From Enterobacteria phage P922, in the sequence record OR999189.1: a stretch of DNA of 64,000 nucleotides; one strand, given 5' to 3'. Shown piece by piece: positions 497 to 13,685 of this stretch (within the stretch, counting starts at the first letter, position 1; every line of letters begins with the position of its first letter). Under the pieces are notes generated by a model. It ran no database searches. It was not told the DNA's origin and saw only the letters and a program-made list of their open reading frames with translations. A program made the translations under genes and the position numbers.

Positions 497-523
497 AAAG
501 GGACCGAAAGGTCCCTTTGTTTT
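497..523. terminator. bidirectional rho-independent terminator between convergent rnlB-like and gene 24
   Basis: Hairpin GGGACC-gaaa-GGTCCC flanked by A-run upstream and TTTGTTTT downstream. Confidence 0.65.
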
Positions 524-1805
524 ATTCATCAACGATAATTTTTGGTAGCTTAACACCTAATAAAACAGACAAATCTGAACGACCCGCCATTTTATCCATG
601 TCTCCACCATCAATTATTCTTGCTTCTTTTTCATCTTTTGCTACAGTGTAAGGATTTGCAGATAAAGCATATCTAACTAATAAACCAATAGATGGCTGCA
701 AACTTTCTGGATCAACTACAACTTTAAATGCACCTACATGTTCAGGGTCATCTAAGTCCAGACCTTCTGTATACGGGGCATAGAAAATTGATCCAACAAT
801 TTCTTTTTCGCCAATATTTTCTACCACGCCAACGATTACATAATCTAATGGGCTGTTAGTGTCACAATAAAGCGGTAAACCATTAGCTAAGAACCCGTAG
901 GCATTTTGTGAAAGATATTTATCATCTTCTGGTTTATGTTTTAACCAACCTGATGCGGCAAGAATCGCAGCAGCACGAGCTGAAGCAACACAGAACGTTG
1001 CTGTATAAGTTGATTCTTTTTGGATATGCGAAACCATTTCACACACCATTCGGTATAATGAACGACCAGCTTCAGGTGCAGATGCATAACTCAAATCAAT
1101 GAATCCGGTGTCAGTAATTCCTGTAACTTTATAGCGTTTTGATACTGTAATCAAAGACTGTAGAATATCTTTATTGATTTCATCCGCCATTTCAGTTGCA
1201 AGCAAATCTTCCAAGAAATTAGGAGCATCGAATCCATTTGCTTCTAAATCTTGTGCTAATTCAACTGTGATGCCAGTTTTAAGTTTACGAGATTTAACTG
1301 CGGTTTGCCATTTATTAATCTGGAATCTAGCATCCGCAATTTCGCTATCAGAGCTTTCAAATTTGCTTGTTGACGCTGCGTCAGAAAATAGGCGAACCTT
1401 TAAAAGAACAATTGCAATCTGAAGAGCTAATTCTAAATCGCTTTCTTCAATGGTAGCAAATGGTGTATCTTCTAATACTTTATAAACGATATTATTATAT
1501 TTGAATAAATCGCCTTTATTGAGAGTTAATTTAGACTCTTCTGTTAATTCTGTGATTTGTTCTCGGTCTACATACCCAGCTTCACCAGCGTAAGTAGCAC
1601 CAGTTTTAAACGTAAATTCGTTGTCTGGGTTAAGGTATTTGATACCATAAAAAGCAGCAACAGGTTGATTAGTTCTTTGTGTTGCTACAATGTCAGAATA
1701 TATTAATTTAGTGGTAGCGCGAGTCAAAGCAACGAGATTTGGGCGACCGATTGAGTTGCTATTCGTTGTGGTTGATTCGCGCAGAAGTTCGTTGATTTTA
1801 GCCAT
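522..1805 (-). CDS. 24: capsid vertex protein gp24
   Basis: 427 aa, N-terminus MAKINELLRE, paralogous to the adjacent major capsid protein; T4 synteny. Confidence 0.9.
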   Translation of the reverse strand: MAKINELLRESTTTNSNSIGRPNLVALTRATTKLIYSDIVATQRTNQPVAAFYGIKYLNPDNEFTFKTGATYAGEAGYVDREQITELTEESKLTLNKGDLFKYNNIVYKVLEDTPFATIEESDLELALQIAIVLLKVRLFSDAASTSKFESSDSEIADARFQINKWQTAVKSRKLKTGITVELAQDLEANGFDAPNFLEDLLATEMADEINKDILQSLITVSKRYKVTGITDTGFIDLSYASAPEAGRSLYRMVCEMVSHIQKESTYTATFCVASARAAAILAASGWLKHKPEDDKYLSQNAYGFLANGLPLYCDTNSPLDYVIVGVVENIGEKEIVGSIFYAPYTEGLDLDDPEHVGAFKVVVDPESLQPSIGLLVRYALSANPYTVAKDEKEARIIDGGDMDKMAGRSDLSVLLGVKLPKIIVDE

Positions 1806-1832
1806 TGCGCTTTCCTTTTGGTTTATATGATT

Positions 1833-1840
1833 TATTTATA
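1833..1840 (-). promoter_or_regulatory. late promoter (TATAAATA) for gene 24
   Basis: Plus-strand TATTTATA 28 nt upstream of the gene 24 start. Confidence 0.6.
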
Positions 1841-1855
1841 CCATAAAAACAACTA

Positions 1856-1876
1856 AAGGGACCCGAAGGTCCCTTA
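1856..1876 (-). terminator. terminator downstream of gene 23
   Basis: Hairpin GGGACC-cgaa-GGTCCC; on the minus strand it is followed by a T-rich run; lies 16 nt after the gene 23 stop. Confidence 0.6.
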
Positions 1877-1888
1877 AATCGTCAAAGA

Positions 1889-3454
1889 TTAGATACCTTT
1901 AACATATACACGGCGGAAGTAAGCGTTTTTACCAAGGCTATTCAGAATAGAAGGCATACCGCTCTGGATGCGAGAAGCCGGAGCCTGAGCAGCGGATTCT
2001 GCAAATGGGTTGATACCGATACCGTAACGAGTTTTGAATCCCATTACTGGTTGGAAGTTCTTCGGATCGGAACCACGCAGCGGAGTCAGAGCTACATATG
2101 GAGCATAGTAAATACCAGCATCCATTTCGTTCGGACCTTTATAACCTACAGTGAAATAATCCTGTTTAGCATACTGGTCGATATATACACGGTATTTACC
2201 ACCCAGAACACCAGCAAATACTGACTTGGTAGTATCAGTGTTAAAGCCGGTAGCCAGACCCTGTGCAGCATAAGAAATGCCAGTATCAACTGAAGCCAGA
2301 ACGTTAACTACGTTACGGGAAGCGATAATGAAGTTACCTTCACCACGACCGGTCTGACGAGCAATTTCAACTGCTTCTTTGTCAATCTGGAACAACAGAG
2401 CTTTAAAGGATTCACCCGCCCAGCGAGCACCACGAATATCAATCGGATCCTGGAAGTCAAATACACCAGCTTTAGAACCTGGAGTCAGGGTCATACCAGA
2501 TTTACCAACCTGAGCTGAGTAGTTAATCCAATCAACAACTTCACGGTTGATTTCCAGCATGATTTCGGTAGCCAGAATACCAGACAGTTCAGCATCAGCA
2601 TCCATACCGTGAACAGCGCGGAGGTCTTGTGCTAATTCGATAGAGTAAGCAGCTTTCAGCTGACGAGATTTAGCTTCGATAACTTGTTTATCGATACGGA
2701 AGCCCATTTCATTCCATGGGTTATCGGTAGAACCGTTGAAACCTTCCTGAAGTTCAGCGATAGAAGTAGCCATACCTTCAGCGATTTCTACCAGTACACC
2801 AGCTTCCATTTGTTTCTTAATTTCAGCATCTAATTTAGCTACGTCAGATGCAGTGGAATCAATTTGTTTAGCTTCTGTAGCTTGCAGATACACAGTACCA
2901 GTGTCCTGGAAGAAGTGGGTGTAAATAGTTCCAACTTCAAGAGTATCACTTGCTTTCAAAGCAGCGAATTTCTTAGCAGCACCCTGACCAGAGAACATTG
3001 CATCTGGACCATACATTGGGTGGAATGCTTCTTTAGCACCTGAAGCGATTGGGTCTTTACCATATACAGCACGCAGTGCGAATACCTGACCAGTCGGGCT
3101 GTTCATCGGCTGAACACCGCAAATATCGAAAGCAATCAGGTTAGGAATAGCACGACGTACCATACCCATAACAGCTGGGCCAATCTGAGTTACTGCGCCA
3201 GAAGTCTGACCAGCAGCGATGTTAGTAGCATTGTAACCATGGTCACCACCGATTTCAGCTTCTGTTAAGAAAGAACCGAACGCTTGGGCGATTTTTTCGT
3301 CTTTGTACTCTGGAGCTGTCTGGAAATCTTTTTCCTGGTTTTCAAAGATTTTAGCGATAATCGCTTGTTTGCTATTAGCAATTTCCGGTAAACCTTCACC
3401 TTCCAGTAATGGCTTCCATTTGTTCAAAAGTTCAGCTTTAGTTTTGATAGTCAT
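1889..3454 (-). CDS. 23: major capsid protein gp23
   Basis: 521 aa, N-terminus MTIKTKAELLNKWKPLLEGEG matches T4 gp23 from memory; synteny 24-23-22-21. Confidence 0.95.
   Translation of the reverse strand: MTIKTKAELLNKWKPLLEGEGLPEIANSKQAIIAKIFENQEKDFQTAPEYKDEKIAQAFGSFLTEAEIGGDHGYNATNIAAGQTSGAVTQIGPAVMGMVRRAIPNLIAFDICGVQPMNSPTGQVFALRAVYGKDPIASGAKEAFHPMYGPDAMFSGQGAAKKFAALKASDTLEVGTIYTHFFQDTGTVYLQATEAKQIDSTASDVAKLDAEIKKQMEAGVLVEIAEGMATSIAELQEGFNGSTDNPWNEMGFRIDKQVIEAKSRQLKAAYSIELAQDLRAVHGMDADAELSGILATEIMLEINREVVDWINYSAQVGKSGMTLTPGSKAGVFDFQDPIDIRGARWAGESFKALLFQIDKEAVEIARQTGRGEGNFIIASRNVVNVLASVDTGISYAAQGLATGFNTDTTKSVFAGVLGGKYRVYIDQYAKQDYFTVGYKGPNEMDAGIYYAPYVALTPLRGSDPKNFQPVMGFKTRYGIGINPFAESAAQAPASRIQSGMPSILNSLGKNAYFRRVYVKGI

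Positions 3455-5623: not shown

Positions 5624-5624
<1 letters not shown>
5376..5624 (-). CDS. 67: prohead core protein gp67
   Basis: 82 aa with extremely acidic D/E-rich C-terminal tail; between 20 and 68. Confidence 0.75.
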
Positions 5625-7249
<1,625 letters not shown>

Positions 7250-7281: not shown

Positions 7282-7773
7282 TTATTCCCAATAATCGAGA
7301 GCGAGAGTTACTTCAAAGGTTTGGATTTCATTGTTTGAATCCCAATCTAACTGAAGTTCACCCACGTTAGTAGGCCACAGGCCTTTAATTTCGACTTCTT
7401 TTGTTACAGTTTTAGCGTCACGAGCATATTGGCGTACAATAGCACTCTTTTTATACTCTGCTGGTTTTCCACCAGTAATTTCGTTTCCTTGCCCAGCAGC
7501 AATGCTTTGCCAGTCAACAAACTTCTGGCGTGCATCATGCGCCTCATCATTCATTACTGTAATAGTCCAGTCATCGAATGTACGATCGCCTGCTACGTTA
7601 ATTTTACGGTTCATAAATCCGACTGGAATTTTTTCTACAATACCAGCTGGTAAAGCAGTGGCTTTACATTGAAACGTAAAATTTTGTCCAAGATAAGAAA
7701 TTTCTACTTGGAATAAGTTAGGTCGAGCAAAATCACCAGATTCAAACGCTCGTGTTACATCATCTACAAACAT
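7282..7773 (-). CDS. 19: tail tube protein gp19
   Basis: 163 aa; size and position beside the sheath gene. Confidence 0.9.
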   Translation of the reverse strand: MFVDDVTRAFESGDFARPNLFQVEISYLGQNFTFQCKATALPAGIVEKIPVGFMNRKINVAGDRTFDDWTITVMNDEAHDARQKFVDWQSIAAGQGNEITGGKPAEYKKSAIVRQYARDAKTVTKEVEIKGLWPTNVGELQLDWDSNNEIQTFEVTLALDYWE

Positions 7774-7787
7774 ATTAGCCTCTGTAG

Positions 7788-7795
7788 TATTTATA
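7788..7795 (-). promoter_or_regulatory. late promoter (TATAAATA) for gene 19
   Basis: Plus-strand TATTTATA 15 nt upstream of the gene 19 start; a second copy at 7847..7854. Confidence 0.5.
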
Positions 7796-7880
7796 TCCCT
7801 ATGTTTAACCTAGGGCATATAGAATTAAAGAATTAAGGATATAGTGTATTTATATGGCCTGCCGAAACAGGCCTTTAGAA

Positions 7881-8498
7881 TCATTCTAGCAAATCCCAAA
7901 GATCTACACTATTTCTTTTTGACTTTTCTCGGTTAGATTCCCAAGTGATTATTTCTAAATTATTAATACCGCCAATTATTTTAGCAGGAATTAAATTATC
8001 AAAACCGTATTTGATAGATACCTTATGATCAAGTTGGTAAGCACCTTCTGTACCACACACTCCTATCTTATCAGCATTCGGCCATTTTGACCAAATTTTC
8101 TTATGCTTACGAGTTTCTCTATATACAGATGAAATATATTCACGCATTTCAGATTTATTTGGGTTCCATCTTGGATGATTTACGCCATGCATACATTCTA
8201 CTGTTTTTCCTTTATTCGCGGAACCATATGAATTATTATGCATTTTGTCTTTATGACGGCAATCACAACAAATATCAGTGTTTCTTCCAATGCGTTGATT
8301 ATATTCAATTCCACATTTATCGCAACGACATTTTACATACGCGGTACTACCTTTAATGTCTTCAACTTTAACATCAATTTCATAATACTTAAATCCGTGT
8401 TTAACCGCTCCAAGAGGTGTTAATTTATATCCCTTTGACTGATAATGTTTAAAATTTGATGGTACAATTTTTACTTTAATGAATTTAGAAATAATCAC
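7881..8498 (-). CDS. free-standing HNH homing endonuclease
   Basis: 205 aa, GTG start after a GAGGA RBS; Cys-rich zinc-binding segment (CRCDKCG...CCDCRH) and C-terminal H-N-N motif (QLDHKVSIKYGF...NNLEIITWESN). Confidence 0.7.
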   Translation of the reverse strand: MIISKFIKVKIVPSNFKHYQSKGYKLTPLGAVKHGFKYYEIDVKVEDIKGSTAYVKCRCDKCGIEYNQRIGRNTDICCDCRHKDKMHNNSYGSANKGKTVECMHGVNHPRWNPNKSEMREYISSVYRETRKHKKIWSKWPNADKIGVCGTEGAYQLDHKVSIKYGFDNLIPAKIIGGINNLEIITWESNREKSKRNSVDLWDLLE

Positions 8499-8536
8499 TT
8501 GATTCCTCGAGAACAGGGGCCGAAGCCCCTTATCAA

Positions 8537-10516
8537 TTAACCTGCAAGACCAGTTAACTCATCGAAATCTGCACCAGTAGCAGTTGCGACGAAATTCAAA
8601 GTAATATAATTTATACTGCGCGCCGGTTGGATGTAGAATGTTGCAACAAACTCATTTCTATCAATTACTGACGGAGTGTTATTTGTTGTATCGCAAACTA
8701 CACGATATTCATAAATTCCACCGAGAGCTTTAATTCCCTGTAAGTATTGGGCAGTTTCTGTGCGGAATGATGAACGAGTAAACGCGTTGTTTAATTCGAA
8801 CAAACGATATTTTGAACTACGTCCGATATTCGTTTTCAACATATTAAACAGACGACGAACGTTAATACGATCAAATGGAGAAGGAACAGAAGTAGCTGTT
8901 TTATCACCATACAATACGTAACCATCACCACCTGTGCCAGTTACTGGGTTGATAGCTTCTTGGTATAAACGGTCGCGCTGAGCTTGGCGAGTTTCAATAG
9001 CAAGTTTAATAACGTTAAGAATCTGGCCGCGATTATAACCAGCTGGAGACATCCAAGTCTGAGAAACGTTATCGGTTCTTGCACATAAACCGGCAATATC
9101 AGCTGCTAATGGAACCCAGCGATTGACATCATTATATTTGTCATACTGATATTTGTAGTTACCATCAATTGCTGCGTAGGTTGAACTGATATTAAAGTTA
9201 TTATCAGTGTATGAACCTGTTGCAGTTCTCCAATTGACTAAGTTATCAACAGCGCGAGTTACAGGAATTCCAACTACAGTTTCGCGCGGTGGTGAGCACA
9301 ATACTAAGCAATCCTGGCGAGCATCCCCAATTGAAACGACGTGTTTTTGGACAGTAGATGCTGTTTCTAAAGATTCACCGGCACAAGAACCCGCAATAAA
9401 CAACTGAACGTCAACAGATTCACGGTCAGCAAAGAAGTCCCAGGCTTCCATTAAATCTCCTGCTGTTACTTCAGCATTTGATGATAATCCACCAGACAGA
9501 GTTAAAATTCCAGAGAATCCTTCTGGCCAGTTTTGTGCAGTTGCGAAAATATATTCTGAACCGCCTTTTGCGAAAAAGTCATCAATGTAGATGTTACTAT
9601 CGTAAATATCTTTTTCACCACGCTTTGTTGAAAGAACAATACTTTGAACAATAGCATCATTACGACGAACTATAATAGCGTATTGCGAATCAGTTTGTGG
9701 TCCATATCCAAAAACTGCCTTGGCAGTAGATGCGCGTGTTCCGCCACCTGGATAAATTGGAAGTAATGCAGAAGCACCTTTTGCGTAGTCAGCTTTAGAT
9801 ACGATTTCAATTTCGATTTTATCGCCCAACTCGCCCGGATAAAGAGCTACTACTCCTGGAATTCCATATTTTTCGAGATTTGCCTGAAAGTCAACCGCTG
9901 TCATAGCAGCTTCAGCATTTTCAATCTCAGCTAATAAAATACCGGAATCAGTAATAATTTTTCCAAGAGTTATTACTGCAGCTAAACCAGATGAAGACGA
10001 AGAAATTTCCGCGGTCCAGTTAGAACCTAATGCTGGATATTCACCGACTTCTTTCGCTTTAGCGATAATTTTTGCGGTAGGAATACTAATTTTCTTAATT
10101 TTTCCATCAGCATCTACTTCGGTAATTTTACCTTCCGTTTCAATGTCTTCTGAAACATACTTAACTGTGATTTTATCTCCAACCGCGTAGTTACTACCTG
10201 GAGTAGAAATAGTGTATTCAATATTACCAGCAATCGGAGATGAGTTTTTAGCGGTATCTCTATCGACAGCACGCACAACTCGCAAATCATTTCCATATTG
10301 TAAGAAATTCATTGCAGACATAAAATAGTCAGCAGTTTCAGCTGTAGGTTGACCAAAAGTATTAACTAAATCTACTTCATTTGTAACCTGTTTGATCTGA
10401 AAAGCAGGACCCCACTGGAATTTACCGGCCAAAGCTGCTGTACCAGTAGAGTTATTAACCACGGTGCTTTGAACCGTAGTTTCTTTGAGCTCAATGCCCG
10501 GAGATAATAAAGTCAT
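8537..10516 (-). CDS. 18: tail sheath protein gp18
   Basis: 659 aa, N-terminus MTLLSPGIELKETTV; length equals T4 gp18. Confidence 0.95.
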   Translation of the reverse strand: MTLLSPGIELKETTVQSTVVNNSTGTAALAGKFQWGPAFQIKQVTNEVDLVNTFGQPTAETADYFMSAMNFLQYGNDLRVVRAVDRDTAKNSSPIAGNIEYTISTPGSNYAVGDKITVKYVSEDIETEGKITEVDADGKIKKISIPTAKIIAKAKEVGEYPALGSNWTAEISSSSSGLAAVITLGKIITDSGILLAEIENAEAAMTAVDFQANLEKYGIPGVVALYPGELGDKIEIEIVSKADYAKGASALLPIYPGGGTRASTAKAVFGYGPQTDSQYAIIVRRNDAIVQSIVLSTKRGEKDIYDSNIYIDDFFAKGGSEYIFATAQNWPEGFSGILTLSGGLSSNAEVTAGDLMEAWDFFADRESVDVQLFIAGSCAGESLETASTVQKHVVSIGDARQDCLVLCSPPRETVVGIPVTRAVDNLVNWRTATGSYTDNNFNISSTYAAIDGNYKYQYDKYNDVNRWVPLAADIAGLCARTDNVSQTWMSPAGYNRGQILNVIKLAIETRQAQRDRLYQEAINPVTGTGGDGYVLYGDKTATSVPSPFDRINVRRLFNMLKTNIGRSSKYRLFELNNAFTRSSFRTETAQYLQGIKALGGIYEYRVVCDTTNNTPSVIDRNEFVATFYIQPARSINYITLNFVATATGADFDELTGLAG

Positions 10517-10544
10517 TTTTAATCCTCTTTAATATGCTTTAATA

Positions 10545-13685
<3,141 letters not shown>

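Follow-up and report, generated by a model that had tools for sequence, protein, structure and literature searches.

A putative free-standing HNH homing endonuclease gene between the tail sheath and tail tube genes of Enterobacteria phage P922

The gene 18/gene 19 junction and its insert

The open reading frame (ORF) described here is found in Enterobacteria phage P922 (sequence record OR999189.1), of which a stretch of 64,000 nucleotides, referred to as the window, was analysed. The window is a segment of a Tequatrovirus (T4-like) genome, and the gene order on its minus strand is 17, 18, ORF, 19, 20. The ORF encodes 205 amino acids (aa) from a GTG start and lies between gene 18, coding for the tail sheath protein, and gene 19, coding for the tail tube protein, positions 7774..8536 being exactly the intergenic interval of these two genes. 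It is probably a free-standing homing endonuclease gene of an uncharacterised HNH family (PHROG 5104; ORF19.1 of phage T6), a reading that is based on its precise intergenic placement, its patchy presence in near-identical genomes, an intact two-module nuclease-like protein, linked variation in the flank and the existence of alternative occupants of the site.

In T4 (NC_000866), the 116-nt gap between the end of gene 18 (100515) and the start of gene 19 (100632) contains no gene. BLAST and MAFFT alignment with T4 revealed that a block of 654 nt in the window stands in place of 7 nt of T4 (ACGGTGC), directly past the stop codon of gene 18. The flanks are 94.9% (genes 17–18) and 97.3% (genes 19–20) identical to T4; the right boundary of the insert is ATTCTAAAGGCCTGTTTCGGCAGGCC, and no target-site duplication was found at the insert in comparison with T4. 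The empty Tequatrovirus sites are all identical and clean (TAA-TACGGTGC-ATTCTAAAGG), and the boundaries of the insert are identical across the occupied Tequatrovirus records, with 7 nt of the empty site being replaced. The features of the junction and the neighbouring genes are as follows:

7881..8498 (−): ORF, 205 aa, GTG start (ORF listing); putative free-standing HNH homing endonuclease, type A (RB3-type) allele of ORF19.1 / PHROG 5104
7882..8535 (−): insert block, 654 nt, composed of UUCG hairpin, ribosome-binding site and ORF (BLAST and MAFFT against T4 NC_000866)
8503..8508 (−): Shine–Dalgarno sequence GAGGAA, 4 nt upstream of the GTG (read from the sequence); kept in the copies L002, L003, L005 and L006
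8516..8529 (−): stem-loop GGGGC-UUCG-GCCCC (GGGGCCGAAGCCCC), 7 nt past the gene 18 stop, part of the insert (seen in the sequence)
7856..7873 (−): native post-gene-18 hairpin GGCCUG-UUUCGG-CAGGCC (GGCCTGCCGAAACAGGCC), outside the insert and now downstream of the ORF
7847..7854 (−): distal T4 late promoter motif TATAAATA of gene 19 (pattern search), identical in T4
7788..7795 (−): proximal T4 late promoter motif TATAAATA of gene 19 (pattern search), identical in T4
8537..10516 (−): gene 18, tail sheath, 659 aa, upstream neighbour (ORF listing, T4 annotation)
7282..7773 (−): gene 19, tail tube, 163 aa, downstream neighbour (ORF listing, T4 annotation)
10548..12380 (−): gene 17
5624..7210 (−): gene 20, portal

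Both hairpins are stem-loops of the C(UUCG)G type on the mRNA strand. That at 8516..8529 is present in all RB3-type and T6-type copies examined and is missing from empty sites; in the gene 18 message, it now forms the 3′ structure instead of the native hairpin. At 7856..7873, T4 and all empty Tequatrovirus sites have the same hairpin as the window and, since both this hairpin and the two TATAAATA motifs match T4, they are native, the motifs still serving gene 19. Neither hairpin is followed by a run of T, and a terminator scan returned zero terminator-like sites. The minimum free energy fold of the leader RNA, in which occlusion of the ribosome-binding site was sought, predicts the UUCG hairpin at 8516..8529 only, with an overall z-score of −1.6 that is not significant.

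Other copies of the ORF (L002, L003, L005 and L006) have an in-frame ATG inside the leader hairpin, which explains their annotation with 216 aa. In the window, positions 8529..8536 are without ATG and have a TAA in frame, and the GTG and its ribosome-binding site are kept, by which the GTG reads as the real start of the ORF. The note of the T6 record likewise names a GTG start.

These results largely agree with a preliminary description of the locus, which had placed a 205-aa GTG-initiated ORF at the 19-18 junction and had stated that T4 has no gene there. The two flanking hairpins it had listed are found at their coordinates, of which only the one at 8516..8529 belongs to the insert, the other being native to T4. 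It had also located segD between genes 23 and 24 of T4 and stated its absence from the window. In T4, segD lies between these genes on the opposite strand; in the window, gene 23 (1889..3454) and gene 24 (522..1805) are only 83 nt apart (1806..1888), and segD is therefore absent.

The Tequatrovirus cassette consists of hairpin and ribosome-binding site only, without a T4-early-type promoter. At four loci outside Tequatrovirus (L007 ~2428..2500, L008 ~2436..2500, L035 and L036 ~2440..2500), the ORF is headed by a T4-early-type promoter (GTTTAC-N17-TATAAT), with a perfect inverted repeat and, after it, a ribosome-binding site in between. This arrangement resembles the promoter–stem-loop cassettes described for RB49/phi1 (PMC2839356).

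A two-module protein with a predicted HNH core

The ORF product matches PHROG 5104, a family of unannotated function, with an E-value of 1.1e-90, residues 1–204 being aligned with profile positions 1–209 of 228. It contains the cysteine motif C57/C59-x2-C62 ... C77-x2-C80 and, towards the C terminus, the residues D157-H158, N180-L181, N189 and K192, which are spaced as in an HNH motif and conform with its H-N-N variant. Both the Cys-rich zinc motif and the H-N-N motif of the preliminary description are hence present, and their key residues C59, C62, C77, D157, H158, N180, L181, N189 and K192 are invariant in 39 family members, with D157-H158 also being invariant in 26 C-terminal domains. The parts of the protein map to the window as follows:

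8259..8324 (−): zinc-ribbon motif C59-x2-C62 ... C77-x2-C80 in the N-terminal module, the presumed DNA-binding/specificity part
7923..8039 (−): HNH (beta-beta-alpha-metal) core, residues 154–192, YQLDH ... NLEIITWESNREK
7881..8078 (−): C-terminal module common to the T6 ORF19.1 allele, ~90% nucleotide identity (sliding window against T6)

For the zinc ribbon, weak matches to the treble-clef domain DUF4379 were obtained in 10 of the 39 members (best E 8e-4), and in the PDB, zinc-finger chains and mS66 were weakly matched. DNA recognition is plausibly the task of this N-terminal zinc ribbon.

Searching the C-terminal domains of family members, 20 of 26 matched phrog_1035 ‘endonuclease VII’ (best E 2.9e-7) and 11 of 26 matched phrog_6050 ‘HNH endonuclease’ (best E 1.7e-5); five more HNH PHROGs (phrog_7785, 17283, 338, 589 and 144) were matched as well. 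AlphaFold (AF2) models with pLDDT values of 86–87 place strands at residues 154–158 and 181–185, followed by a helix at 186–192, conforming with a beta-beta-alpha layout. The models show two modules, with a pTM of 0.48 for the whole protein and of 0.75 for the C-terminal domain. A Foldseek comparison with the PDB returned the HNH domain of NmeCas9 as the top three hits, which are weak (best E 0.13). The C-terminal profile collected 308 clusters at E ≤0.01, two of which are named McrA by JGI; no precomputed Pfam domain was found among the 308 clusters. Taken as a hidden Markov model (HMM) search for HNH families, the analysis was negative with Pfam and NCBIfam and positive with the PHROG HNH and endonuclease VII models, the latter via other family members. 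The C-terminal module likely has an HNH-type fold with predicted nuclease activity.

Distribution, allele types and the linked patch in gene 18

A 2.2-kb query around the ORF matched 787 phage records, of which the closest were Escherichia phages LYE-01, W143 and 132 (98.8–99.5%), RB3 being 97.4% identical. The number of records matching the region at ≥90% identity was about 496–520. Megablast of the insert revealed 117 phage records, 47 of which carry it in full length at 95–99% nucleotide identity (RB3-type, type A allele), and ~70 match only the last 245 nt (T6-type, type B allele, ORF19.1). A chimeric query spanning gene 18 into the leader of the ORF again returned exactly 117 records. Such chimeric BLAST queries were used to determine the large-sample association indirectly, because a scan of IMG/VR with gp19 gave only 15 loci. 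The occupancy in Tequatrovirus is ~22–24%, and that of the type A allele is ~9%.

Comparison of the junction across T4-like genomes thus revealed the ORF to be present in ~117 of roughly 500 Tequatrovirus records and not universal, which supports its description as an inserted gene. That it is specific to one lineage, as also proposed in the preliminary description, was not upheld. Homologues were detected by tblastn in 235 phage records from many genera, with hosts including Escherichia, Klebsiella, Acinetobacter, Serratia, Enterobacter and Sinorhizobium, and they occur at the same junction; the PHROG 5104 family is not lineage-specific. In every annotated phage record examined, the homologue directly follows the tail sheath gene, as found in T6, vB_SsoM_113, Klebsiella Roth21, PSD9, Bp7, Sinorhizobium phiM7 (in which no tube gene follows), Aeromonas AS-zj, Acinetobacter Acj61 and IME540. 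The metagenomic members P0111, P0128, P0028 and P0005 are placed after the sheath gene too, by which this placement spans Tevenvirinae, Twarogvirinae, Emmerichvirinae, Emdodecavirus and metagenomic contigs. On the metagenomic T4-like contig L030 (219..6257; also L031; JGI), a SegE-like GIY-YIG gene is located at 18/19 and the family member P0118 between the tube and portal genes (19/20). As the 18/19 junction is occupied by family members in many genera and by a SegE-like gene, it is a recurrent home for endonuclease genes.

The Dhakavirus phages Bp7 (L009 3769..4350) and IME540 (L029 3747..4328) have, between genes 19 and 20, an extra ORF of ~193 aa containing a CxxC motif, which was considered as a further family member and rejected as unrelated (hhalign probability 1.3%). 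The Bp7 record splits gene 20 into two annotated pieces. Among the database entries, MG010123.1 (‘Staphylococcus phage SAJK-IND’, 32 kb) is at 8395..10596 97% identical to the Tequatrovirus sheath/tube region including the ORF and looks mislabelled or contaminated; the ‘Pseudomonas phage’ entries PsgM02F and vB_PSGBLB0006 likewise hold Tequatrovirus sequence at the sheath/tube region.

Type A (window, RB3) and type B (T6 ORF19.1) alleles are ~90% identical in the leader, in codons 1–7 and in the last ~200 nt, and only 30–60% identical in the remainder (nt 31–420; 8079..8468). In the family alignment, five A/B pairs (P0022/P0001, P0027/P0012, P0028/P0005, P0030/P0013 and P0031/P0008) have C-terminal modules with 93–99% identity and N-terminal modules with only 25–35% identity. 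At the DNA level, the loci of the pair P0028/P0005 (L036, type A; L035, type B) are both at 18/19 with flanks that are 96–100% identical, and their divergence is restricted to the leader and the N-terminal module. The repeated pairing of two diverged N-terminal modules with the same lineage-specific C-terminal module demonstrates recombination between alleles and repeated lateral exchange. The pairs also show a long-lived dimorphism of the N-terminal module, the presumed specificity part.

The ORF is intact and under purifying selection. A pN/pS of 0.11–0.16 was determined for the window copy against two type A copies (ADUt and G2540-3), the value between two type B copies was 0.13, and 232 of the 235 tblastn matches are full-length.

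Upstream of the insert, alignment with T4 revealed a cluster of synonymous differences in gene 18:

8588..8621 (−): synonymous cluster at the 3′ end of gene 18, codons R-S-I-N-Y-I-T-L-N-F-V (alignment with T4)

The patch is spelled CGC AGT ATA AAT TAT ATT ACT TTG AAT in the window and AGA AGC ATT AAC TAC ATT ACC TTA AAC in T4. It comprises 11 mismatches to T4 in 34 nt, all of them synonymous, with a gene-wide background of ~5% and just 2 differences in each of the 100-nt bins beside it, and it lies 52–85 nt from the insertion. At 8608..8615 it contains the element TATAAATT, which is similar to TATAAATA of the T4 late promoters; some lineages lack the first T of this element. A variant patch is found in 113 of the 117 occupied Tequatrovirus records. 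Among the empty records, ~76 match the variant-patch query at ≥95% identity, and most others look T4-like or intermediate.

At the type A/B-occupied loci L007, L008, L035 and L036, the I-N-Y codons of the patch read ATA AAT TAT (4/4), as they do at L021, which is occupied by a longer, type-C-like member. Most empty loci have ATY AAC TAC, and loci with more divergent members (Bp7, IME540, AS-zj and Acj61) have spellings other than ATA AAT TAT. ATA-AAT-TAT is the sole synonymous spelling that is unlike ATY-AAC-TAC at every third position, as would be expected of selection for a cleavage-resistant target. The patch may also be a late-promoter-like element, or it may reflect tight linkage in the form of hitch-hiking or a co-conversion tract.

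Proposed homing, rival explanations and comparison with known systems

As far as sequence analysis reaches, the preliminary view of an HNH-type gene inserted at 18/19 and resembling a homing endonuclease gene is borne out. In a mixed infection, the enzyme would nick or cut the allele lacking the ORF, the site being in the conserved 3′ end of gene 18 or close to it, and the T4 recombination machinery would repair the break from the ORF-bearing genome, copying the ORF along with nearby markers. Intronless homing of this kind has been shown for SegF, SegG and MobE of T4. The N-terminal module would confer target specificity and the C-terminal module catalysis. Expression in this phage would probably result from read-through of late gene 18 transcripts, possibly aided by TATAAATT in gene 18; in other genera, the ORF is equipped with a T4-early-type promoter and a stem-loop of its own.

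Several observations weigh against homing by an HNH nuclease. At the protein level, the window protein's own PHROG match is to PHROG 5104 only, the matches to HNH PHROGs coming from other family members, and it has no Pfam match at E up to 1. Pfam searches with the 39 members gave no nuclease domain except for one member at HNH_4 (E 0.078), NCBIfam gave zinc-ribbon noise only and no HNH model, and PDB sequence-profile searches with profiles of the full-length protein and of the C-terminal part returned zinc fingers, mS66 and spurious LRR/septin matches only, without a nuclease. Concerning expression, a recognisable promoter directly upstream of the ORF in this phage was not found, the pattern search revealing no exact TATAAATA there and the sigma-70 promoter scan nothing beyond the shuffled expectation. 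In the literature searched, no cleavage or inheritance data for the ORF19.1 family were found. The near-constant post-sheath position across very distant phages would also fit an old resident gene that was lost often. Finally, a T4-type patch is present in 4 of the 117 occupied records, namely sb1, sb3, Ec_YwIITB1 (98.8% to the chimera) and sb2 (95.9%). In Shigella phage sb1 (L034 1160..1967), an intact type A ORF is located beside a T4-type patch, which weakens the interpretation of the patch as obligatory immunity site or promoter. Since the sb1 group combines the ORF with the T4-type patch, the patch is not an obligatory immunity determinant or promoter. That the 3′ end of gene 18 holds a target or immunity site is to be regarded as a lead, not a finding. 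The sb1 group could be a patch/ORF recombinant or could have arisen when the ORF invaded recently and co-converted only a very short tract.

A domesticated or accessory nuclease of benefit to the phage, acting in T-even exclusion, in degradation of host or rival DNA or in DNA processing near the packaging genes, is an unlikely explanation of the ORF. It would account for the purifying selection and the almost universal intactness of the gene, for its steady location near the genes for terminase, sheath, tube and portal in very distant phages, and for its nearest structural neighbours, Gme HNH (4h9d) and GVE2 HNH (5h0o), being small HNH nucleases. These two are nicking enzymes of a type associated with packaging in phages. 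However, T4 and ~75–80% of its close relatives are viable without the gene, which, therefore, is not part of the packaging machine, and T4-type phages package by headful and not at cos sites. Moreover, presence or absence with exact boundaries, combined with module swapping, is the pattern of a selfish homing gene, and an exclusion function and homing can coexist.

Less probable still is an ancestral, vertically inherited T4-like gene that was deleted many times, including in T4, and has no active mobility. The occurrence of members directly after the sheath gene in all the groups named above, from Tevenvirinae to metagenomic contigs, speaks for such a gene, but the identical, clean empty sites of Tequatrovirus are not expected from repeated independent deletions. 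The five lineages with different N-terminal modules on the same C-terminal module indicate lateral exchange, and the family member at 19/20 together with the unrelated GIY-YIG gene at 18/19 in L030 also argues against vertical inheritance. A zinc-finger protein that binds DNA or RNA and whose HNH-like fold is degenerate and catalytically dead, such as one regulating late tail gene expression, would fit the lack of matches to curated nuclease models (Pfam, NCBIfam), a motif of H-N-N instead of H-N-H and sequence-level PDB/Pfam matches only to zinc ribbons, but is highly improbable given that D-H, N, N and K are invariant in 39 diverse members, which is not expected of a dead fold, that the H-N-N variant is active in known enzymes, I-HmuI-type nickases among them, and that the C-terminal HMM matches are to HNH and endonuclease VII PHROGs.

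Within the homing interpretation, the 18/19 junction might represent a long-lived three-state polymorphism (empty, A and B), in which types A and B replace each other and invade empty sites in a self-sustaining contest of homing genes. We advance this as a tentative and rather unlikely proposal. The common leader and the lineage-specific HNH module could act as built-in homology arms, the deeply diverged N-terminal specificity modules would be kept up in many phage lineages, and types A and B would recognise different gene 18 target variants, including each other's linked variant. If true, such a contest would differ from the usual cycle of invasion, decay and loss.

The homing-gene class is known already, as are near-identical copies of the ORF in dozens of deposited genomes and the T6 allele, which is deposited in GenBank as ORF19.1. 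Free-standing homing endonuclease genes are well documented in T4 (Edgell et al. 2010, PMC2988022; Petrov et al. 2010, PMC2993671) and, the class being well known there, the ORF does not represent a new principle. The family is mostly annotated as “hypothetical”, with few records naming a homing endonuclease (ADUt and others), an HNH endonuclease (Ptacy1496), a restriction endonuclease or a head morphogenesis protein. Experimental characterisation of the ORF19.1 family was not found in the literature searched, and a curated Pfam model is also lacking. Recognising the family would improve annotation. In T4-type phages, which are widely used in phage therapy, marker exclusion, mosaicism and gene flow are influenced by free-standing homing endonuclease genes. 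The homing interpretation predicts biased inheritance of the tail sheath/tube region in crosses, and for studies of specificity the family offers a compact predicted HNH enzyme whose N-terminal modules are exchangeable in nature. Of its features, the A/B module dimorphism alone merits further work.

Among known systems, T6 ORF19.1, to which no function is assigned in the literature searched, shares with the ORF the 18/19 junction, the insert boundaries, the GTG start and a leader that bears the GGGGCUUCGGCCCC hairpin and the ribosome-binding site; over the HNH core (last ~200 nt), the two are ~90% identical. It differs in the N-terminal ~135 residues, which are ~27% identical (type B versus type A here; overall ~50%), and in the linked gene 18 patch, which reads ATC CAA CTT in T6 versus ATT ACT TTG here.

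The mob genes of T4 (mobA–mobE, of which MobE is the tested one) are likewise free-standing, of HNH type, located between conserved T-even genes and sporadic. Intronless homing is presumed for them (Edgell et al. 2010, PMC2988022). A relation to Mob/I-HmuI was not evident from Pfam, in which the window protein has no match and the 25 families matched most often by the 39 members do not include HNH_3/NUMOD; Mob sequences were not compared directly. HNH_3 and NUMOD are the Pfam modules of Mob/I-HmuI-type enzymes. The module order is also different, with the nuclease module being C-terminal and the zinc ribbon N-terminal here, whereas in Mob and I-HmuI-type enzymes the HNH module is N-terminal.

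Gme HNH (4h9d) and GVE2 HNH (5h0o), in contrast to the ORF product, are without an N-terminal zinc-ribbon module and are not encoded at a sheath/tube junction. The terminase-associated HNH enzymes of the HK97 gp74 type are encoded next to the terminase genes of cos-packaging phages and are needed for packaging; the ORF, in contrast, has gene 18 between itself and gene 17 and is lacking in T4 and most of its relatives. SegD, SegF and SegG of T4 resemble it in being intergenic cassettes in a cluster of structural or essential genes, with the target presumably in the adjoining conserved gene, and in what may be linked flank polymorphisms, but have a GIY-YIG fold in place of the HNH type found here. 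Finally, the replacements SegH/mobC and Hef/mobE, in which one intergenic site reportedly holds alternative endonuclease genes in different T-even phages (as Sandegren et al. are said to have described in 2005), are comparable to the 18/19 junction with its empty, A and B states and the GIY-YIG gene in L030; the difference is that the alternatives here include two alleles of one family, which have the leader and the catalytic module in common and differ in the N-terminal module.

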